A DNA stretch of 64,000 nucleotides from Methanomicrobiales archaeon (GCA_015660865.1 JACTUA010000004.1:20111-84110), one strand, 5' to 3'; shown: positions 26,215-64,000, numbered from the stretch's first letter. Notes: a model not told the origin generated them from the letters alone. A program made the numbers and translations.

Positions 26215-26287
26215 GCCGCCATAACTCAGTTGGTAGAGTGGCTGGCTGTTAACCAGCATGTCACAGGTTCGAGTCCTGTTGGCGGCG
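26215..26287 (+). tRNA. tRNA-Asn (anticodon GTT)
   Basis: A cloverleaf folds by hand: acceptor GCCGCCA/TGGCGGC, anticodon loop CTGTTAA, T-loop TTCGAGT. Confidence 0.9.
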
Positions 26288-26300
26288 CTCTCCTCTTTCC

Positions 26301-26375
26301 GGGCCCGTAGCTTAGTCTGGTAAGAGCGCCCGGCTCATAACCGGGCGGTCGTGCGTTCGAATCGCATCGGGCCCA
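26301..26375 (+). tRNA. tRNA with CAT anticodon (elongator Met or agmatidine-modified Ile2)
   Basis: Acceptor GGGCCCG/CGGGCCC, anticodon loop CTCATAA, T-loop TTCGAAT. Met versus Ile2 identity cannot be decided by eye. Confidence 0.85.
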
Positions 26376-27409: not shown

Positions 27410-27426
27410 AAGGGCTAAGGATCTGC

Positions 27427-27735
27427 GGGGACTAGCCCGGGTGGTTCGACGTCACCTGTCACCCGAAACCGCCGGCACGCGGGGGGCGAAGTCCGAGGGA
27501 GACTCCGGCGACCTGCCCACGTTTTGTGCAACCTGACAAAGAAGCCTCGTCCTGTGAGGTCAATGGACAGGGATCGAAGCCCCGGAGGGGGCGGGGACCT
27601 GCAGCCGCGGGGACCGGTTCAGACCCGGAAGGGAGCAGACTTACCGCGGACATCTGGCGCCCACGGGGGAGCGGGGTGGAGGAGGGCTGCACAGGCAGGA
27701 GCAGGGTACGTGGTGGCCACCGAGGACGTGTCCCC
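27427..27735 (+). ncRNA. ffs: Signal recognition particle RNA (archaeal 7S RNA)
   Basis: The 5' segment GGGGACTAGCCCGGGTGGTTCGACGTCACCTGTCACCCGAAACCGCC resembles the archaeal SRP RNA 5' domain. It also contains the conserved helix-8 motif CCCGGAAGGGAGCA. The 5' GGGGAC pairs with the 3' GTCCCC. Overlapping track ORFs are compositionally non-coding. Confidence 0.85.
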
Positions 27736-27749
27736 ATCTTACGATTATC

Positions 27750-52871: not shown

Positions 52872-52946
52872 AGCGAGGTGGGGTAGTCAGGATATCCCGA
52901 CGGGCTCATAACCCGTAGATCGATGGTTCAAATCCATCCCTCGCTA
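52872..52946 (+). tRNA. Initiator tRNA-Met (anticodon CAT)
   Basis: A1:U72 acceptor (AGCGAGG/CCTCGCT), three consecutive G:C pairs in the anticodon stem (ACGGG-CTCATAA-CCCGT) and T-loop TTCAAAT are archaeal initiator hallmarks. Confidence 0.9.
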
Positions 52947-56510: not shown

Positions 56511-57499
56511 CGGATCGAGAGTCCCTTGACCCGGATTCCGGCTTCTTTCACGATCCTGCCCACAACCCGTGATCCGGGGATGAGCTTTTGTATCACTCCA
56601 GCCCCATCTTCGGGAAGGACGTAGGCAAACCCCATGCCCATGTTGAAGGTACGGTACATCTCCACCGGATCGATCTGCCCTTTCTCCTGGATGTAAGGAA
56701 AAACAGGATGGACCGGCAGGGGATCGGTGAACTCAAATCCATAGTGGGTGATCCGGGTGAAGTTGAGGAGGCCGCTCCCTGTCACATGGCACATGCCATG
56801 GACCTCGGTCCTCCGGCAGGCCTCCAGGCTCTCGTGGTAGATCCGGGTCGGGGTGAGCAGGGCCTTTCCGAGGGTCATCCCATCCGGGAGGCGTTTATTA
56901 TACCCGCCCGACTTCTCCACCACCCTTCTTGCAAGGGAGAGGCCGTTCGAGTGGATCCCGCTGGAAGGGACGCCGACGATGCAATCGCCAGGCTTGATCT
57001 TCTCGCCGGTGACGACCTTCTCCCTCTCCTGCACACCCAGGCAGGTCCCGGCGAGGTCCAGGCCGTTCACGAGGCCGGGGAGCTGGGCGGTCTCTCCCCC
57101 GACCAGGTTCAGGTTGGCCTGCCGGGCGCCCTCGTTCAGCCCCTCGCCGATCTGGGCCATCTTCTCCACCGAGAGCAGGTCGGTCGCGATATAGTCCACG
57201 AAAGCAACCGGCTCCACGTTCATGACAAAGAGGTCGTTCGCGTTCATGGCGATGCAGTCGATGCCGACGGTCCGCCAGTCCTTCTCGTGATCGGCGACGA
57301 GCATCTTCGTCCCGACACCGTCGGTGGTGAGTGCGAGGACGTGCTCTCCGAACTCTATGAGGCCCGCGTAGTGGCCCATCCCGCCGAGCATCCCGTAGGG
57401 TCCCTCCCTCCGGAAGCTCACCCTGCCCGTGAGGGCCCCGATTGCCTCTTTGACGAGGTCGATATCGACTCCGGCGGCGCGGTAGGTCTCCCTACCCAT
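56507..57499 (-). CDS. purM: Phosphoribosylformylglycinamidine cyclo-ligase (AIR synthetase)
   Basis: 330 aa with YRAAGVDID and DGVGTK motifs. Confidence 0.95.
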   Translation of the reverse strand: MGRETYRAAGVDIDLVKEAIGALTGRVSFRREGPYGMLGGMGHYAGLIEFGEHVLALTTDGVGTKMLVADHEKDWRTVGIDCIAMNANDLFVMNVEPVAFVDYIATDLLSVEKMAQIGEGLNEGARQANLNLVGGETAQLPGLVNGLDLAGTCLGVQEREKVVTGEKIKPGDCIVGVPSSGIHSNGLSLARRVVEKSGGYNKRLPDGMTLGKALLTPTRIYHESLEACRRTEVHGMCHVTGSGLLNFTRITHYGFEFTDPLPVHPVFPYIQEKGQIDPVEMYRTFNMGMGFAYVLPEDGAGVIQKLIPGSRVVGRIVKEAGIRVKGLSIR

Positions 57500-58892
57500 C
57501 CTGCTCCTCCGAGAGCCTCAACTCCTCGTGGAGCACCCGCACCGCCTTCGGGCCGTCTGACTCCTTCACCACGAAGGAGATGTTCACCTCCGAGGACCCC
57601 TGGGAGATCATCATGATGTTCACACCTGCAAGGCCGAGGGCCGTGAAGATCCTCCCCGAGATCCCGGGGGTGCCGATCATCCCTGCCCCCACCACCGCAA
57701 CAGCGGCGACATCGGGGTTTGCGGTCACGTCGCGGACGATCCCCTGCTGGACCATGGGCTTCAGCGCTTCGGCAGCGATCTCCATATGATCGAGCTCCAC
57801 GATGATGGAGATGTTTGCCTCCGAGGATCCCTGCGAGATCATCATGACGTTCACCTCCTTGTCGGCGAGGGCGGTGAAGATGGCCCGGGCAACGCCGGGC
57901 CTCCCGATCATCTGGGCCCCGTTCACATTGATGAGGGCGACGCCGGTGATGTGGGTGAGCGCCTTCACGACCCGGCGGGCCCTCCTTTTCTCCTTCGTAA
58001 TGCAGGTCCCCGGGTGCGAGGGGTTGAAGGTGTTCTTCACCCTGATAGGGATCCCCTTCCTCATTGCGGGCTCGATGGAACGGGGGTGCATCACCTTTGC
58101 GCCGAAGAAGGAGAGTTCCATCGCCTCCAGGTACGAGACTGAGGGGAGGACCCGGGCCTCCCTGACCAGGCGGGGGTCGGTGGTCATGATGCCGTCCACG
58201 TCGGTCCAGATCCAGATCTCGTCTGCACCGATGGCAGCCCCGACCACGGTTGCCGAGTAGTCCGAGCCGCTGCGGCCGAGGGTGGTGGTAATCCCCTGCG
58301 GGGTGCACCCCATGTAGCCCATGATGACCGGCACCGAGTCCTGGAGGAGGGGGAGGATCCGGCCCCGGATCTTCGCCTCGGACTCGGGGATGACGATCCC
58401 GTCTCCATGGGTGGCGGTGGTCGTGATCCCTGCCTCGCAGCCGTCGAGGACCACCGACGGGATACCCCGCTGCCTGAGGGCGGCACGGATGACCGGTGCC
58501 GAGAGGCGCTCCCCGAAGGAGATGATGTAATCCCGGGACCTCGGGGTCAGCTCCCGCAGGTTGTTCAGGCCCATGAACATATTCCTCAGGTCCGAGAGCC
58601 TCCCTTCAAGGATACGGCCCGTCTCCTCCAGGTAATCGGGGGCGGCCACCTCGAGGGCCTTCCGGTGCCTCTCCCTGAGCTGAGTAATGAAGGGCTCGAT
58701 TCCTGGCTTCTCCTTGCAGGTCACCACCTCGTTCGCCATCTCGATGATCTGGTTCGTCACCCCGGACATGGCGGAGACGACCACCCCGAGCTCATGCCCC
58801 TCTTCATGGTACGGCTCGAGGATATCCACCACCTTTCTGATGCGGTCCCCGTCCCCGACAGAGGTACCTCCGAATTTCATCAGGAGCCTCAT
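57492..58892 (-). CDS. lysC: Aspartate kinase (two C-terminal ACT domains)
   Basis: 466 aa with KFGGTSV and duplicated ACT-like segments (NVMMISQGSSE twice). It overlaps the purM start by 8 nt. Confidence 0.9.
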   Translation of the reverse strand: MRLLMKFGGTSVGDGDRIRKVVDILEPYHEEGHELGVVVSAMSGVTNQIIEMANEVVTCKEKPGIEPFITQLRERHRKALEVAAPDYLEETGRILEGRLSDLRNMFMGLNNLRELTPRSRDYIISFGERLSAPVIRAALRQRGIPSVVLDGCEAGITTTATHGDGIVIPESEAKIRGRILPLLQDSVPVIMGYMGCTPQGITTTLGRSGSDYSATVVGAAIGADEIWIWTDVDGIMTTDPRLVREARVLPSVSYLEAMELSFFGAKVMHPRSIEPAMRKGIPIRVKNTFNPSHPGTCITKEKRRARRVVKALTHITGVALINVNGAQMIGRPGVARAIFTALADKEVNVMMISQGSSEANISIIVELDHMEIAAEALKPMVQQGIVRDVTANPDVAAVAVVGAGMIGTPGISGRIFTALGLAGVNIMMISQGSSEVNISFVVKESDGPKAVRVLHEELRLSEEQDG

Positions 58893-58948: not shown

Positions 58949-60577
58949 ATGCGTGCAGACGATACGGTGGAGTGTCACGTCCTCGTCATCGGGAGCGGGG
59001 GTGCCGGCGTGCGGGCGGCCATCGAGGCCGAGAAGCACGGGGATACGGTGCTCGTCTCCAAGTCCCTCGCCGGGAAGGGCGGGTGCACCCCGATGGCGGA
59101 GGGCGGCTACAACGCGGCCCTCAGGGAGGGGGACTCCTGCGTGCTCCACAAGGAGGACACCATCCGGGGCGGGGCCTACCTGAACAACCCGGAGCTCGTG
59201 GATATCCTGGTGAACGAGGCGCCGGAGCGGTTCCTCGAGCTGGTGAGGTGGGGAGCGGTCTTCGACCGGACCGAGGAAGGGGAGTGGGCCCAGCGGTCCT
59301 TCGGGGGCCAGCGGATCCCCCGGACCTGCTATGCCGGTGACCGGACCGGCCATGAGATGATGATGACCCTCCTCGAGCGCCTCCGGGCGAGCAATGTCTC
59401 GGTCCTCCAGGAGGTCTCCATCATCGACCTCCTGAAGCGGGAAGGGAGGGTGGTCGGTGCGGTCGCCCTCGACAGGAACGGGGAGCTCACGGCCTTCCAG
59501 GCCGACGCAACCATCCTCGCCACCGGGGGAGCTGCAAGGATATACGACATCTCCACCAACTCCGCGACCGGCACCGGCGACGGGTTCGCGATGGGCTACC
59601 GGGCAGGGGCGGAGCTCATCGATATGGAGATGGTCCAGTTCCATCCGACAGGGGCTGTCTACCCCTATGACGCCCGGGGCCGGCTCGTGACCGAGGCGGT
59701 GCGGGGCGAGGGGGGCATCCTCCTGAACTCGAAGGGCGAGCGGTTCATGGAGCGGTACGACCCCGAGCGGATGGAGCTCTCGACCCGGGATGTCGTCGCC
59801 CGCTCCATCGCCAGGGAGATCGCCGAGGGCAGGGCGACCCCCCACTACGGGGTCTACCTGGACGTGACCCACCTCTCTCCCGAAAAGATCGAGGAGAAGC
59901 TCCCCATGATGCTCGAGCAGTTCCTCGCGTTCGGGACTGACATCAGGAAAGAGAAGATGGAGGTGGCGCCCAGTGCCCACCACTTCATGGGCGGGCTCAG
60001 GATCACCCCGAGATGCGAGACCACGGTCCCCGGCCTCTATGCCTGCGGCGAGGCCGCGGGCGGGGTCCATGGCGCAAACCGGCTGGGCGGGAACTCCCTC
60101 GCCGAGACACAGGTCTTCGGGAGGCGTGCGGGTGATACTGCGGGGAGAGCCCCATCCCGGGGGACCCGGATCGACACGCGGCAGCTCGAGAATTACCGGC
60201 GGAAGCTGGACGAGTTCCACTCGGGCGGGGTGAACCCGGTCACCGTGGTGAAGAAGCTCCAGGAGGCGATGTGGAACGGGGCAGGGATCACGAGGAACGT
60301 CCATGACCTGGAGCGGACCCTCGTGGATGTGGAGAAGCTCGCGAAGAAGAAGCTCCTTGCCCAGACGCCCATGAACCGTGCCGAGTGCTTCACCGTGCAG
60401 AACATGTGCCTGGTAGCATCTCTCGTGATACGGTCGGCCCTCCTCAGGGGCGAGTCCCGGGGGGCACATGTCCGGACCGACATCTTCCAGAGCTGGGACG
60501 CGGCGAACTCCCCGTATGGCCATACCTACATCTCCATCCACCATGCGGGAATCGAGGAACGGAAGGTGCCGGCATGA
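58949..60577 (+). CDS. tfrA: Thiol:fumarate reductase subunit A (fumarate reductase flavoprotein)
   Basis: 542 aa with FAD motif VIGSGGAG and HPTG/RxxxxE catalytic blocks. It is paired with a TfrB-type subunit downstream. Confidence 0.85.
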   Translation: MRADDTVECHVLVIGSGGAGVRAAIEAEKHGDTVLVSKSLAGKGGCTPMAEGGYNAALREGDSCVLHKEDTIRGGAYLNNPELVDILVNEAPERFLELVRWGAVFDRTEEGEWAQRSFGGQRIPRTCYAGDRTGHEMMMTLLERLRASNVSVLQEVSIIDLLKREGRVVGAVALDRNGELTAFQADATILATGGAARIYDISTNSATGTGDGFAMGYRAGAELIDMEMVQFHPTGAVYPYDARGRLVTEAVRGEGGILLNSKGERFMERYDPERMELSTRDVVARSIAREIAEGRATPHYGVYLDVTHLSPEKIEEKLPMMLEQFLAFGTDIRKEKMEVAPSAHHFMGGLRITPRCETTVPGLYACGEAAGGVHGANRLGGNSLAETQVFGRRAGDTAGRAPSRGTRIDTRQLENYRRKLDEFHSGGVNPVTVVKKLQEAMWNGAGITRNVHDLERTLVDVEKLAKKKLLAQTPMNRAECFTVQNMCLVASLVIRSALLRGESRGAHVRTDIFQSWDAANSPYGHTYISIHHAGIEERKVPA

Positions 60578-60725
60578 AAATGGCTGATGCCATTTTCAAA
60601 TGGCTGTGCCAGCAAGAAAACGGGGATCTCCCGTTTTCAAATGGCTGCGCCAGCAGGAAAATGCCTGACGTCGTTTTCGAGTGGCTGGTCGCCAGCATGA
60701 AACGGCTGATGCCGGTTTCAAGAGG
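60576..60725 (+). repeat. Four tandem ~40-42-nt double-hairpin units filling the tfrA-tfrB junction
   Basis: Units are at 60576-60615, 60616-60656, 60657-60698 and 60699-60725. Each unit is GAAAA-N-TTTTC hairpin plus a TGGCTG-N-CCAGC hairpin. Hairpin 1 is GAAAATGGC/GCCATTTTC and hairpin 2 is GAAAACGGG/CCCGTTTTC. Confidence 0.8.
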
Positions 60726-60737
60726 CGGAGGCGCCGG

Positions 60738-62213
60738 ATGAAACGTTTCACCGTGACGGTGTACCGGCATAACCCCGCGAAGGACCAGCGCTCCCGGTAC
60801 CAGACGTATACCGTCGCGGTCGAGGAGGGAGCCAGGGTTCTCCACCTCCTTCACGCCATCCATGCAGAGGACCCGAGCCTCTCATACCGGTACTGCTGCG
60901 GGACCGGCCAGTGCGGTTCCTGCGCGGTGAGGGTGAACGGGGAGCCGGTCCTCGCCTGCATGACCGAGGCCCGGGACGGGATGGTCATCGATCCCCTGAA
61001 CCTCCCGGTGAAGAAGGACCTTCTCGTGGACATGGAACCGGTCCTCGGGAAGATCGCGTCCATCGTCCCGAAGGATGTTGAGTGCATCCCCTCCCGGGAC
61101 GAGGTGGAGGCCCTGAAACCGCTCAGGTCCTGCATCGAGTGCCTGGCCTGCGTCTCGGTCTGCCCGGCGATGGAGGTGGCCGAGTTCGCCGGCCCCCTCT
61201 CGATGAAGCAGGAGATGCGGCTTGCCATCGATCCCAGGGACTCCTGCGACCGGATCACCGATGCCATCCGCGACGGCCTCTTCATGTGCACCACCTGCCA
61301 GTATTGCTGGAAGGTCTGCCCGAAGAAGATCGAGATTCCGGGGAAAGCCATCGAGAAGCTCCGGAGGATGGCGAACCAGAGGGGGCTCACCCTGCCAAGG
61401 CACGCGGAGGTCGCAACCCTCATCAGTGAGACGGGCCGGTCGGTCCCGAAGAACCAGCCGACCTTCCTCGACCAGGTCCCCGAGGTCATCGAGCCCGCAG
61501 GCCCGGTCCGGGGGACGGTGGGGTTCTTCGTGGGGTGCATGTACAACAACCGCCTCCCCCAGACGGCGCTCGACGCCATGGAGGTCCTGTCGAGGAACGG
61601 GATACGGGTGATCATCCCCCACGAACAGGTCTGCTGCGGCTCGCCCCTCATCCGCACAGGCCAGACCGACATCCTCCCTGACCTCATGGAGAAGAACATC
61701 GCCGCCTTCACCTGTCGGGGGATAGACACCGTCGTGACCATGTGTGCGGGGTGCGGATCCACCCTGAAGAACGACTATCGCACCCCCTTCGTGGTGAAGG
61801 ACGTGAACGAGATCCTCACCGAGATCGGGATCGAGGAGCCTGCCCGGCTCCCGATCCGGGTCGCGTACCATGACCCCTGCCACCTCCTCCGCGGCCAGGG
61901 GATCCAGAAACAACCCCGGGAGCTCATCGCCCGGGTCGCCGAGCTGGTCGAGCTTCCCGTGAAGTGCTGCGGGGCAGGGGGAGGGACCCGCTCGGGCCAG
62001 CCCGAGGTCTCGAAAGCCCTCGCCGGAAAGAGGGCCGAGGAGATCGAAAAGGCAGGTGTGGAATGGGTGATCTCCTCGTGCCCCTTCTGCGAGTTCCATA
62101 TCGGCGAGCACTCGAAGAGGCCGGTGAAGAACATCACCACGCTCCTCCTCGAGGGATACCGGCGCAAGGACCAGGACCGGGGAGGGGAAGCCGGCGAATC
62201 GGCGGCTGCATGA
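60738..62213 (+). CDS. tfrB: Thiol:fumarate reductase subunit B (Fe-S subunit fused to HdrB-like CCG domains)
   Basis: The ATG at 60738 gives MKRFTVTVYRHNP.... It has a 2Fe-2S (CGTGQCGSCAV) and 4Fe-4S motifs, then two CCG-type Cys-rich domains (VCCGSP..., KCCGAGGG). Confidence 0.85.
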   Translation: MKRFTVTVYRHNPAKDQRSRYQTYTVAVEEGARVLHLLHAIHAEDPSLSYRYCCGTGQCGSCAVRVNGEPVLACMTEARDGMVIDPLNLPVKKDLLVDMEPVLGKIASIVPKDVECIPSRDEVEALKPLRSCIECLACVSVCPAMEVAEFAGPLSMKQEMRLAIDPRDSCDRITDAIRDGLFMCTTCQYCWKVCPKKIEIPGKAIEKLRRMANQRGLTLPRHAEVATLISETGRSVPKNQPTFLDQVPEVIEPAGPVRGTVGFFVGCMYNNRLPQTALDAMEVLSRNGIRVIIPHEQVCCGSPLIRTGQTDILPDLMEKNIAAFTCRGIDTVVTMCAGCGSTLKNDYRTPFVVKDVNEILTEIGIEEPARLPIRVAYHDPCHLLRGQGIQKQPRELIARVAELVELPVKCCGAGGGTRSGQPEVSKALAGKRAEEIEKAGVEWVISSCPFCEFHIGEHSKRPVKNITTLLLEGYRRKDQDRGGEAGESAAA

Positions 62214-64000
62214 CGGTAGATGGGAGGAGACCCGGAAAAAGCGGACAACCCCCCGGGGAATCTGCCGATATCCGGGTCCTCATCGTCCTCTCCAGCCTAG
62301 ATCTCATAGAATATGCGAGGAACGACCTGCAGTCGGAAGGGTGCTTCAGGGTCGAGATGGCCCGGTCGGGCGAGGAGGCCCTGGAGAGGCTGAAGATCTC
62401 GGAGTTCGATGCCATCGTTTCCGGGCTGCACCTCCCGGGAATGAGCGGGATCGCCCTCCTCCAGAGCTTCCGGTGCGGTGGTAACTGGACGCCCTTCATC
62501 ATCCTCACAGCGGGGCCCGACATGAAGACCGTCCTTTCCGCCTTCAACAATGGCGTATCGGCCTTCATCGATACCGGGACAGAGGGGGGTCTCCTCCCGG
62601 GCAATCTCTGCATGGCTGTCATCAGGGCTGTGGAGGAACACCGGTCCCTGCTCGCGATCAGGAAGGAGAGGGACCAGTTCAGGGTCATTCTCTCGGCCCA
62701 GAAGACGGGCCTTGCCCTCATCAACCAGGACCTCACCATCGCGTGGGCGAACGAGGAGACACGGAGGCTCTTTCCCGGCCGGGAACCCGTGGGGGTGGTG
62801 TGCCACGTGTTCTATGAAGGACTGGACCACGCGTGCGAGCCCTGCCCGACAATCCGCACCTTCGAGACGGGCACCATCCAGGAGGACGAGCGCTACAACC
62901 CCCTCGACGGGAGATGGTACCATATCATCACCCAACCTGTGCGGAACAGTGAGGGGCGGGTGGTCCAGGTGCTCGAGGGGATCACCGATGTCACGGACCG
63001 GAGACGGGCCGAGGAAGCCCTCCGTCTCTCCCGGGAGAATTACCGGGATCTCGTCGAGAACGCGAACAGCATCATCTTCCGCTCGGACAAGGAGGGGAAC
63101 ATCACCTTCTTCAATGACTTTGCCCAGAAGTTCTTCGGGTTCTCTGCCGGGGAGATCCTGGGGAGGAATGTTATCGGCACCATCGTTCCGGCGAGCGACA
63201 GCGCAGGGAGGGACCTGGTTGCCATGATCCGGGAGATCAGGGAGCACCCGGACGGGTACCAGAACAACGAGAACGAGAATATCAGGAAGAACGGGGAACG
63301 GGTCTGGATCTCCTGGACGAACCGGGCCATCTACAACGAGAAGGGGGAGTTCGTGGAGCTCCTCTCCGTAGGAAATGACATCACCGACCGGAAGCGGGCC
63401 GAGGAGGGACTCAGTGCCGCGAATAAGAAACTAAACCTCCTCTCGAACGTCACCCGCCATGACGTCCTGAATCAGCTGAACGTCCTTGCCGGCTACCTGG
63501 GCTTGGTAAGGGACAAGGTCAGTGATGTGGATACCGCCGCCCTCCTCTCCCGGGCATGGGACTCGGCCTGGACCATCCGCAAACTCATCGCGTTTACCAA
63601 GGATTACCAGGAGATAGGCGTCCATTCTCCCTGTTGGCATGGTATCGCATCCACGGTGGCAATGGCCTCTTCTACGCTCGATCTGGAAGGGATCGCCCTT
63701 GAGCTGGATGTGGGGGACCTCCAGATCTATGCCGATCCCCTCCTGGAGAAGGTCTTCTACGCCCTCCTGGACAATGCCCTCCGGCATGGGGAGCGCATCG
63801 ACCGGATCCGCATCTCCTGCCGCCATGAAGGCGGGGATCTGGCGGTCGTCGTGGAGGATAACGGGGTCGGGATACCGGCGGAGGAGAAGAAGAAGATCTT
63901 CGCCCGTGGCACGGGGAGGAACACCGGTTACGGGCTCTTCATCGCCCGGGAGATCCTCTCCATCACGGGGCTCTCCATTGCAGAGACAGGGACCTTCGGG
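62210..64000 (+). CDS. Hybrid sensor histidine kinase (degenerate receiver, two PAS domains, HisKA-like H-box, HATPase); 3' end outside the window
   Basis: Not in the ORF track because no stop falls within the window. The frame is open from the ATG at 62210 (ATGA overlap with the tfrB stop) to 64000. The H-box is NVTRHDVLNQL, the N-box LLDNALRHG, G1 VEDNGVGIP and G2 GYGLFIAREI. Confidence 0.8.
   Translation, partial: MTVDGRRPGKSGQPPGESADIRVLIVLSSLDLIEYARNDLQSEGCFRVEMARSGEEALERLKISEFDAIVSGLHLPGMSGIALLQSFRCGGNWTPFIILTAGPDMKTVLSAFNNGVSAFIDTGTEGGLLPGNLCMAVIRAVEEHRSLLAIRKERDQFRVILSAQKTGLALINQDLTIAWANEETRRLFPGREPVGVVCHVFYEGLDHACEPCPTIRTFETGTIQEDERYNPLDGRWYHIITQPVRNSEGRVVQVLEGITDVTDRRRAEEALRLSRENYRDLVENANSIIFRSDKEGNITFFNDFAQKFFGFSAGEILGRNVIGTIVPASDSAGRDLVAMIREIREHPDGYQNNENENIRKNGERVWISWTNRAIYNEKGEFVELLSVGNDITDRKRAEEGLSAANKKLNLLSNVTRHDVLNQLNVLAGYLGLVRDKVSDVDTAALLSRAWDSAWTIRKLIAFTKDYQEIGVHSPCWHGIASTVAMASSTLDLEGIALELDVGDLQIYADPLLEKVFYALLDNALRHGERIDRIRISCRHEGGDLAVVVEDNGVGIPAEEKKKIFARGTGRNTGYGLFIAREILSITGLSIAETGTFG

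Follow-up and report, generated by a model that had tools for sequence, protein, structure and literature searches.

A tandem hairpin-repeat array between tfrA and tfrB of Methanoregulaceae-like archaea is spanned by an open reading frame that may preserve translational coupling

Coupling of neighbouring genes by termination-reinitiation (TeRe) requires overlaps of -4 or -1 nt and is nearly abolished by a spacer of ~20 nt; such overlaps are enriched among genes for subunits of heteromeric complexes (PMC10666635; PMC6728339). The TeRe-coupled pairs described in 2019 (PMC6728339) and 2023 (PMC10666635) resemble the locus analysed here in being co-directional genes for two subunits of one enzyme, with ATGA (-4) or TGATG (-1) overlaps and a Shine-Dalgarno (SD)-like motif in the end of the upstream open reading frame (ORF), and a relay ORF of the kind reported below is described in neither paper. 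The probable ancestral junction between tfrA and tfrB is a textbook case of this arrangement. Unlike these pairs, the present locus has two overlaps in series, joined by a hairpin-repeat ORF of 15–69 codons whose peptide is not conserved. In the E. coli infC-rpmI-rplT operon, the ribosome-binding site of a gene is buried in a structure that is opened when the ORF before it is translated, and the relay is a real, conserved ribosomal protein gene. An opening by upstream translation is likewise proposed here, whereas the tfrA–tfrB relay is repetitive and has no conserved product.

REP/BIME elements of bacterial operons, some of which lie close to a stop codon (PMC12306157), are, like the array at this locus, tandem imperfect palindromes of variable copy number between operon genes; the first hairpin of the array begins at the upstream stop codon. 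A genome carries REPs at tens to thousands of loci, all extragenic and untranslated, whereas the tfrA–tfrB unit was recovered from a single locus, where it lies within a maintained reading frame. Hairpins formed by template switching (Monttinen and Loytynoja 2022, PMC8794818) are also alike in their multi-base 'compensatory' changes and perfect stems, for which G.U intermediates are unneeded; they lie in RNA genes, whereas the hairpins reported here lie in a putatively translated spacer, where template switching is a presumed mechanism.

The sequence analysed, referred to as the window, is a 64-kb stretch of DNA from a Methanomicrobiales archaeon in which tfrA and tfrB are separated by the repeat array and by the ORF that spans it, the bridge ORF (Table 1). 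TfrA scored 803 bits against its NCBIfam equivalog (cut-off 718) and TfrB 628 bits (cut-off 385; profile positions 1–488, with the alignment starting from residue 1). As both proteins are covered nearly full length by family profiles, the tfrA stop and the tfrB start are ordinary ones. The two equivalogs make the pair subunits of one heteromeric complex, as is typical of TeRe-coupled genes. A longer TfrB starting from the GTG at 60681 was rejected as the family profile begins at the ATG at 60738, and joining of TfrA to the bridge by fusion or frameshift was rejected as the tfrA stop corresponds to the usual C-terminus of the family. A sensor kinase gene lies 3′ of tfrB and is ATGA-coupled.

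Table 1. Genes, bridge ORF and repeat units of the tfrA–tfrB region, with positions in the window
Feature	Position	Strand	Description
tfrA, flavoprotein subunit of thiol:fumarate reductase (CoM/CoB)	58949..60577	+	NCBIfam TfrA equivalog; Pfam FAD_binding_2 and Succ_DH_flav_C
Bridge ORF, 55 codons	60574..60741	+	ATG overlaps tfrA stop (ATGA); TGA overlaps tfrB ATG (ATGA)
Unit 1, 41 nt	60574..60614	+	UGAAAAUGGC-UGAU-GCCAUUUUCA hairpin, then GGCU-GUG-CCAG; -17.6 kcal/mol; covariance-model match 51.1 bits
Unit 2, 40 nt	60615..60654	+	GAAAACGGG-GAUCU-CCCGUUUUC hairpin, then GCUG-CGC-CAGC; -19.3 kcal/mol; covariance-model match 25.8 bits
Unit 3, 42 nt, 14 codons	60655..60696	+	Imperfect hairpin GAAAAUGCC-UGAC-GUCGUUUUC, then GCUGG-UCG-CCAGC; -11.7 kcal/mol; covariance-model match 47.7 bits
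Unit 4, 41 nt	60697..60737	+	Bulged hairpin GAAACGGC-UGAU-GCCGGUUUC, then GGCG-GAGG-CGCC; -17.7 kcal/mol; covariance-model match 46.6 bits
tfrB, iron-sulfur/CCG subunit	60738..62213	+	NCBIfam TfrB equivalog; Pfam Fer2_3, Fer4 and 2x CCG

The 164 nt between 60574 and 60737 consist of four tandem ~41-nt units, each with a (U)GAAAAY…RUUUUC(A) hairpin and, after it, a short GC hairpin. A repeat search returned four copies, whose starts lie 41, 40 and 41 nt apart, and Tandem Repeats Finder reported the array as 1.9 copies of period 81 (score 174), the sole such array in the 64 kb. The first-pass annotation had given four units of 40, 41, 42 and about 27 nt. Their number held; segmentation gave 41, 40, 42 and 41 nt, the fourth unit being full length with GGCG-GAGG-CGCC as its second hairpin. 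That annotation had also described the array as exactly filling the junction. The units do span the region from the tfrA stop to the tfrB ATG, but the repeat register begins at 60568, 6 nt within tfrA, and the 13 nt with which tfrB opens (ATGAAACGTTTCA) are similar to a unit whose hairpin has collapsed. Since the register begins within tfrA and the tfrB start is unit-like, the array is more than a gap filler. The last tfrA codons (GAAGGTGCCGGCATGA), which include the SD-like GGAAGGTG, constitute the first copy of the repeat boundary.

Both the tfrA stop and the AUG of the bridge lie in the base of the unit 1 hairpin. The GGAGG SD of tfrB lies 6 nt 5′ of the tfrB AUG, within the last hairpin of unit 4, and the final-unit motif GGCGGAGG is retained in most relatives. 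Two stems in the array are perfect (TGAAAATGGC/GCCATTTTCA and GAAAACGGG/CCCGTTTTC), which agrees with the earlier remark that stems 1 and 2 are unlike in sequence yet perfectly paired. Folding of a 201-nt region surpassed 200/200 dinucleotide shuffles on both strands (z = -3.83 on the plus strand and -4.91 on the minus strand). Like REP/BIME elements, which are imperfect palindromes of ~20–40 nt, the units are arranged in tandem and capable of forming stem-loops.

The 55-codon ORF with an ATGA overlap at each end (60574–60577 and 60738–60741), also noted in the first pass, was borne out; both overlaps are of 4 nt, TeRe overlaps being 4 nt or 1 nt. Gene callers called the bridge ORF on 5 independent contigs. 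The frame in which unit 2 is read is shifted (ENGDLPFSNGCASR), and the TGA that would end it is missing from the unit 2 loop.

Comparison of tfrA–tfrB junctions among relatives, as proposed in the first pass, revealed 17 other distinct array-bearing versions from related Methanoregulaceae-like archaea (18 with the window), with 1 to about 6 units in the relatives. Across the clade, in which the flanks are 6–18% divergent, junctions with 0, 1, 2, 3, 4, 5 or about 6 units were found. Two clade members (L020 and L025) and all outgroups (TfrB ≤73% identity) have no array and a direct stop/start overlap (ATGA, GTGA or TGATG). Judged from these sequences, the ancestral state is a direct overlap of the tfrA stop and tfrB start in one of these three forms, a geometry that would support termination-reinitiation coupling. 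As a tandem array, the 164 nt of the window are lineage-specific and confined to a single locus. In a first neighbour-joining tree L015 was misplaced owing to its shorter tfrA tail, and that branch was ignored.

An unbroken ORF or a chain of two ORFs leads from the tfrA stop to the tfrB ATG in 18/18 array-bearing versions, 17 of them checked as distinct spacers of 43–249 nt from sequence and one from gene calls only. The junctions in these chains are ATGA, TGATG, TAATG or TAGATG (an overlap or 0-nt spacing) in all 18. The bridge varies from 15 to 69 residues and is split into two ORFs in L016 and L058. The bridge frame contained 0 stops in 791 codons, compared with 72/772 and 20/772 in the other frames, and composition-matched shuffles were open in just 5–30% of trials (arrays of 24–69 codons). 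Units that are not whole triplets are compensated, by 41+40 in the window and 37+41 in L015. Whole-unit gain or loss of 42, 39 or 30 nt keeps the frame automatically, so the 18 versions, which share ancestry, are not 18 independent tests; our estimate is that ~5 or more compensated frame events arose independently. Duplication of an ATGA-bounded unit of length 2 mod 3 also preserves the chain by construction. With these limits, the comparison shows an array that is tolerated only where an ORF or two-ORF chain begins with an AUG at the tfrA stop and ends in a stop codon that overlaps the tfrB AUG. The first-pass annotation had offered an RNA element, an inserted miniature repeat or a translational-coupling micro-ORF; the last appears the best supported of the three, given the ORF chain in 18/18 junctions. 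Its choice between RNA element and micro-ORF does not hold as an either/or, as hairpin and open frame are both conserved.

An ORF that is open in every array and that gene finders recognise could encode a real small protein of 14-residue repeats (consensus MKTPDVVFKWLVAM) with its own role, such as that of a TfrAB assembly factor, and the 42-nt subfamily units, of 14 codons, do have a recognisable common peptide. In fifteen 42-nt units, however, the codon-position entropies were 0.72/0.79/0.70, with no third-position excess, whereas third positions in tfrB were ~3–6 times more variable than first and second. Units of one array lie in different frames: depending on the unit, the TTTTC arm encodes VFK, FS or RFQ, and identical nucleotides are read in all three frames across different units. 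The peptide ends are wholly unlike (RGGGAG, AAEAPE and TDEVPR), and the ORF, besides its variable length and its split in L016 and L058, is absent in L020 and L025. A single-sequence search of 5.8 billion protein clusters with the 55-aa peptide of the window gave itself as the sole exact match, and relatives were recovered only by a profile of bridge peptides, every one that was looked up being at a tfrA–tfrB junction; neither search found a homologue beyond this junction, and there was no Pfam match. The bridge peptide thus does not behave as a conserved small protein and is not conserved in these comparisons. A functional peptide was excluded because there is no amino-acid-level constraint and the same nucleotides are read in three frames, and we consider a small protein very unlikely. 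It had been argued earlier that unit lengths that are not multiples of three speak against a peptide repeat. The conclusion stands but the reason does not, as such lengths are a feature of this window only and the internal units of relatives are mostly whole codons (42, 39 or 30 nt).

The hairpins are also maintained. Stem cells were paired in 84.9% of cases, against ≤52% with the partners slid; double-change cells numbered 11, against 4.0 in shuffles (0/500 as high); and inner-stem pairing was 80% within units and 67% between units (p = 5e-5). These tests uphold the earlier claim of covariation preserving structure. Array-bearing junctions are structured (z = -3.8, -2.5 and -1.6) and an array-less junction is unstructured (z = +2.29). 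Hairpin complementarity is actively maintained, perhaps by selection (e.g. for masking of the SD and AUG, which would make tfrB dependent on upstream translation) or perhaps by template-switch conversion of a DNA palindrome. Mismatches on the sense strand were A.C in 28 cases and G.U in 7, a difference that is not significant when the shared descent of the units is allowed for; it is suggestive, and does not favour a stem selected in the sense-strand RNA.

A structured cis-regulatory RNA on the sense transcript, setting the TfrA:TfrB ratio with the open frame secondary, would account for the covarying stems and the folding excess over shuffles. It could act as a processing or stability element, a ribosome brake, or a mask over the tfrB start that responds to temperature or a ligand. 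The first hairpin holds the tfrA stop codon and the last holds the tfrB SD, and E. coli palindromes ≤15 nt from a stop codon cut translation of the upstream gene (summarised in PMC12306157). Yet a range from 0 to about 6 copies among close relatives, two of them with none, is odd for a needed regulator, and the open frame in all 18 versions is left unexplained. Additionally, the excess of A.C over G.U points away from it, Rfam 15 has no family at the locus (the only matches in the window are the SRP RNA and three tRNAs), and the stems would stay melted under translating ribosomes. We regard this reading as doubtful; of the regulatory RNA element suggested in the first pass, the hairpins as structure stand, and a stem selected in the sense RNA is not favoured. 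A further version, in which the repeats form a translational rheostat of tunable copy number that sets the hand-over of ribosomes from tfrA to tfrB and then to the sensor kinase gene, itself ATGA-coupled, seems improbable. If true, it would be an archaeal intercistronic element class not described so far, and its A-U-rich stem bases could make the hand-over depend on temperature or growth rate.

Alternatively, the array may be a functionless, slippage-prone DNA palindrome whose stems are kept by template switching during replication, with selection only against versions that break tfrB. Template switching makes and repairs stems in a single event (PMC8794818), and the lack of a G.U preference among mismatches fits it. 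So do the variable copy number and the apparently precise loss of the array in L020 (ATGATGAAG), which is as expected from exchange between ATGAA repeats. The GC content of the array (53–57%) is below that of the flanks (63–70%), and the array diverges at a rate close to that of third codon positions (5/44 vs 0.156 between L018 and L021). However, lineages with a synonymous-site divergence of 15–34% have kept the outer stem and linker (ATGAAAAY, RTTTTCAAG), and the array does not differ among five contigs from separate samples, and so is not hypervariable within the species. We judge this reading unlikely; it overlaps with the explanation preferred below and differs from it only on whether the hairpins do anything. 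Repair of the palindrome at the DNA level may contribute as much as RNA function to hairpin covariation at this locus.

The idea that the unit is a dispersed repeat was not sustained. A covariance model, with filters off, found no other copy in the 64-kb window, and none was found outside the junction in ~95 kb of related loci. When 185,579 species genomes were scanned with an exact pattern, 9 isolated single matches came back, all in unrelated bacteria and none archaeal, which is about the chance level (~3 by our estimate for the pattern and collection size). The window's own sequence was not among them, its genome being absent from the collection or masked there; the pattern was also too strict for so variable a unit, and the scan says little on dispersal. 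A scan of viral contigs gave no match. A promoter and terminator scan returned nothing in the array with a bacterial-type consensus, which is not appropriate for archaea. A CRISPR array was rejected because the units abut without spacers and differ from one another, and a MITE because the repeats are head-to-tail and direct, the flanking similarity is the junction itself and no other copies were found in the window or the ~95 kb. REP/BIME identity was rejected as the unit is not dispersed in the window or the ~95 kb and lies in an open frame in 18/18 versions. A mobile or host-wide repeat (REP/BIME-like or MITE-like), or an operator array for a dimeric DNA-binding protein, would suit the palindromic unit, whose outer half-sites (TGAAAAC and GTTTTCA) are conserved, as well as the commonest unit length of 42 bp (~four helical turns) and an intercistronic position like that of many REPs. 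Besides the search results and the confinement of bridge relatives to this junction, the half-site spacing varies (loops of 3–8 nt) and L016 keeps complementarity with altered half-site sequence, which fits a hairpin and not an operator; this class of explanation is highly improbable. Of the inserted miniature repeat proposed in the first pass, lineage-specific insertion and variable copy number hold; the unit is not dispersed in the DNA covered and seems junction-derived.

We consider that the array probably arose by duplication of the junction and expansion through slippage, and that its translated bridge would preserve termination-reinitiation coupling from tfrA to tfrB. A short overlap segment, made up of the last ~6–15 nt of tfrA, with the SD-like GGAAGGTG, and the tfrB start ATGAAAC/GTTTCA, would have been duplicated in tandem, and the near-palindromic tfrB start would have expanded to a hairpin of 8–10 bp. 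Slippage or unequal exchange would then have shifted the copy number between 0 and about 6. An origin from the junction is suggested because the register starts inside tfrA and the unit ends copy the local tfrA end (GCCGGCATGA vs GCCAGCATGA in the window; GCCGTGATGA vs GCCATGATGA in L034). These similarities are short and in part reflect a shared requirement for SD and ATG. From the sequence we infer translation of the bridge and reinitiation: ribosomes finishing tfrA would reinitiate on the bridge and melt its hairpins, including the last one with the tfrB GGAGG, then terminate atop the tfrB AUG and start again from that codon. Coupled synthesis of TfrA and TfrB would thereby survive a 160-nt insertion that would otherwise abolish it, and the bridge peptide would be a by-product. 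De novo initiation at the GGAGG 6 nt upstream of tfrB could suffice, in which case the bridge would perhaps be less important.

Under the coupling model, the locus would provide comparative evidence for a reporter-derived rule, that termination-reinitiation needs an overlap and fails at ~20 nt, as an insertion of 43–249 nt between subunit genes persists only where a throw-away frame rebuilds the chain of overlaps. A new ORF that every pipeline calls as a gene could then stay open by selection without its peptide mattering, which advises caution in small-protein annotation.

Comparison of L016 with L026 showed a difference of 6/85 nt in the array and 2/480 in tfrB, with a tfrA tail that is apparently several percent diverged (an estimate); local hypermutation and a recombination boundary are equally likely explanations of this excess in the array.

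A repeat search of the junction between tfrA and tfrB, the two subunit genes of thiol:fumarate reductase, revealed four head-to-tail copies at spacings of 41, 40 and 41 nt, the reference copy beginning at 60568, six bases inside tfrA. Tandem Repeats Finder reported a period of 81 nt (1.9 copies, score 174) and no comparable array elsewhere in the 64 kb. Segmentation gave units of 41, 40, 42 and 41 nt, each consisting of hairpin 1, (U)GAAAAY…RUUUUC(A) with 8–10 pairs, and a short GC hairpin (hairpin 2), with folding energies between −12 and −19 kcal/mol for single units; folding of the array region beat 200 of 200 shuffles on both strands. The first-pass annotation had described four such two-hairpin units, which was confirmed by repeat search and folding, except that the fourth, put there at about 27 nt, was full length. 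The second hairpin of unit 4, GGCG-GAGG-CGCC, holds the tfrB Shine-Dalgarno (SD) sequence. The uninterrupted ORF overlapping both genes as ATGA, here termed the bridge, also proved real. As family profiles cover both flanking proteins almost end to end, the tfrA stop and tfrB start are the ordinary ones. The closest named relatives of TfrB were from Methanoregula, Methanolinea and Methanoregulaceae MAGs. GC content was 53–57% in the array (60550–60700) versus 63–70% in both flanking genes.

Features of the window around the tfrA-tfrB junction and elsewhere
Feature	Position	Strand	Observation
Three tRNA genes (two adjacent) and archaeal SRP RNA gene (Rfam)	26215-26375, 27425-27737, 52872-52946		Ordinary; place the window in Archaea
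Aspartate-kinase-like gene	57492-58892	-	AA_kinase and two ACT domains; divergent from tfrA, 56-nt gap
TfrA ORF	58949-60577		Above NCBIfam equivalog cut-off; profile spans nearly whole protein; Pfam
Array	60574-60737		Four units
Bridge ORF	60574-60741		55 codons
TfrB ORF	60738-62213		Above NCBIfam equivalog cut-off; profile spans nearly whole protein; Pfam
Hybrid response-regulator/PAS/histidine-kinase gene	62210-64000	+	Runs past window end; start overlaps tfrB stop (ATGA, 62210-62213)

The exact TfrA protein was indexed in 28 assembly-collection blocks, and contigs were read from the 24 with the longest contigs. The identical array was present in the five contigs shown, from separate JGI, ENA and Logan samples; the array is a real, well-replicated feature. 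More distant junctions were obtained from TfrB homologues, by scanning metagenomes with the TfrB N-terminus and from a bridge-peptide profile search with contig look-ups. This comparison, proposed in the first-pass annotation, revealed that array presence and unit number vary. Outgroups (TfrB ≤73% identity) had a direct ATGA/GTGA overlap or another short junction and no array. Within the clade, whose flanking sequences differ by 6–18%, two members (L020 and L025) had no units and joined the genes by TGATG and ATGA overlaps, and the rest carried 17 further distinct arrays of 1 to about 6 units in spacers of 43–249 nt. L020 was nested among array-bearing lineages, and its junction, ATGATGAAG, is the product expected if ATGAA repeats had exchanged within an array like that of its relative L021. 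The degenerate two-ORF arrays of L016 (381–465) and L026 (178–262) differed at 6 of 85 nt, compared with 2 differences over the first 480 nt of tfrB; either local hypervariability or a recombination boundary could account for this, the latter because the tfrA tail also appears several percent diverged (an estimate).

In every array-bearing version the ORF start ATG overlapped or abutted the tfrA stop (ATGA, TGATG, TAATG or TAGATG) and the bridging stop overlapped the tfrB ATG (ATGA or TGATG); in L016/L026 and L058 the link was a two-ORF chain with an internal ATGA. With all arrays taken together, the bridge frame contained 0 stops in 791 codons, the other frames 72 and 20 in 772 each, and composition-matched shuffles were open in only 5–30% of trials (arrays of 24–69 codons). 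Internal units were mostly 42, 39 or 30 nt, and terminal units were 41 or 44 nt because the ATGA ending requires that length. Off-length units were compensated, as 41+40 in the window and as 37+41 and 40+40 in the related locus L015. Unit 2 of the window is read in a shifted frame and has an odd loop, GATCT, without TGA; the common TGAT/TGAC loop would put a TGA stop in its frame. As the arrays share ancestry and whole-unit gain or loss keeps the frame automatically, the 18 versions are not 18 separate trials, and independent evidence for the frame comes from the few compensated indels and from the lack of stop codons.

Codon-position entropies across fifteen 42-nt units in the same frame were 0.72/0.79/0.70; in tfrB of the same clade, third positions were ~3–6 times more variable than first and second. 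The conserved RTTTTCAAG arm was translated as VFK, FS or RFQ depending on the unit, and the window peptide alone had no detectable homologue among 5.8 billion clusters. These comparisons indicate that the bridge frame is conserved but the bridge peptide is not. The earlier argument that unit lengths which are not multiples of three speak against a peptide repeat agreed in its conclusion with the lack of peptide conservation, but its premise on lengths held only for the window (41, 40 and 41 nt in three of the four units) and not for the internal units of relatives. In L058 (966–1219) the gene caller picked a 75-aa ORF in another frame (992–1219) where the sequence holds two bridge ORFs joined by ATGA, an example of how such arrays become mis-annotated.

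Alignment of units over a 10-pair stem showed standard pairs in 84.9% of cells, compared to 35–52% with partners slid. Five stem pairs were altered on both sides; cells with a double change numbered 11, where shuffles gave 4.0 (0/500 as high), which bore out the covariation claimed previously. With arms anchored at the stem base, inner-stem pairing was 80% within and 67% between units (1/20,000 permutations as high); inner stems included TGGC/GCCA, CGGG/CCCG, TAG/CTA, CAGC/GCTG, TGC/GCA, CCGG/CCGG, CTGC/GCAG and GCGG/CCGC. Both arms of the degenerate L016 array had lost the A/T tract (GACG/CGTC, GATCG/CGATC). By inspection, hairpin 2 also appears to change complementarily (TGGC/GCCA, TAGC/GCTA, AAGC/GCTT, TGCC/GGCA). 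Judged from these alignments, the hairpin is conserved as structure. A selected sense-strand RNA stem should favour G·U over A·C, whereas hairpin 1 stems of 52 distinct units (from the window and loci L015–L064), read on the sense strand, had 433 Watson-Crick pairs, 28 A·C, 7 G·U and 25 other mismatches. Allowing for descent, this was roughly 6–8 A·C events versus 3–4 G·U events, which is not significant; the misfit with a simple sense-RNA model is only a hint because shared descent leaves few events. The mismatch pattern would fit a DNA palindrome maintained through template switching (PMC8794818), and would equally fit use of the other strand. This bears on the limits of covariation as evidence for RNA function.

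The inserted miniature repeat, also suggested initially, was upheld in part: the array is a lineage-specific insertion of variable copy number, but no dispersed copies were found in the DNA searched. A 22-nt degenerate unit pattern had no further match within the window and nine in 185,579 species genomes, each single and all in unrelated bacteria, where ~3 were expected by chance (an estimate). A covariance model of the unit (21 units, hairpin 1 as structure), searched with filters off, recovered the four units in the window, where no other hit reached E < 1; in related loci totalling about 95 kb it recovered junction copies only. Rfam had no family matching the array and viral contigs no match to the unit. 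CRISPR, MITE, Rfam family and conserved small protein were all rejected as identities for the array. In appearance it resembles a REP/BIME cluster, yet it lacks two defining features of these: dispersal, as far as the DNA searched shows, and being untranslated.

Genes for subunits of heteromeric complexes show an excess of stop/start overlaps (PMC10666635), and translational coupling drops steeply with distance, being nearly gone at about 20 nt (PMC10666635; PMC6728339). With such a decay, tfrB would lose its coupling to tfrA if 160 nt of untranslated spacer lay between them. Across the junctions compared, spacers survive only where a chain of ORFs spans them. The bridge would best be explained as carrying ribosomes between the genes: they would reinitiate at 60574 via the ancestral tfrB SD, GGAAGGTG, inside tfrA, unwind the array hairpins, terminate at 60739–60741 and start anew at 60738, whose GGAGG would otherwise be half-masked by the last hairpin. 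The array-less junction was less structured than random (z = +2.29) and array-bearing junctions were more structured, so the bridge would also have an unmasking role. The hairpins may add regulation, acting as a brake or as a temperature-sensitive mask, or may be passengers. The element would work like a termination-reinitiation-coupled junction, but one extended by a relay ORF, and bears on translational coupling in archaea and on the birth and upkeep of ORFs without a functional product.

Unit boundaries copied the local tfrA end, both in the window (GGTGCCGGCATGA versus GCCAGCATGA or GCGCCGGATGA) and in the related locus L034 (GCCGTGATGA versus GCCATGATGA), and the unit start ATGAAAAC…GTTTTCAAG was similar to the clade-specific tfrB start ATGAAACGTTTCA. 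On the simplest reading, the overlap junction would have been duplicated in tandem, and the array would then have developed through growth of the palindrome and slippage. Some of the likeness between unit and junction is unavoidable, because both need an SD and an ATG.

The sensor kinase gene downstream lies in one coupled chain with tfrA, the bridge and tfrB, an arrangement kept in clade relatives (L010–L016, L055 and L060); the outgroup L017 has another, opposite-strand neighbour at this position. The aspartate-kinase-like/tfrA neighbourhood was conserved in the clade and in L017.
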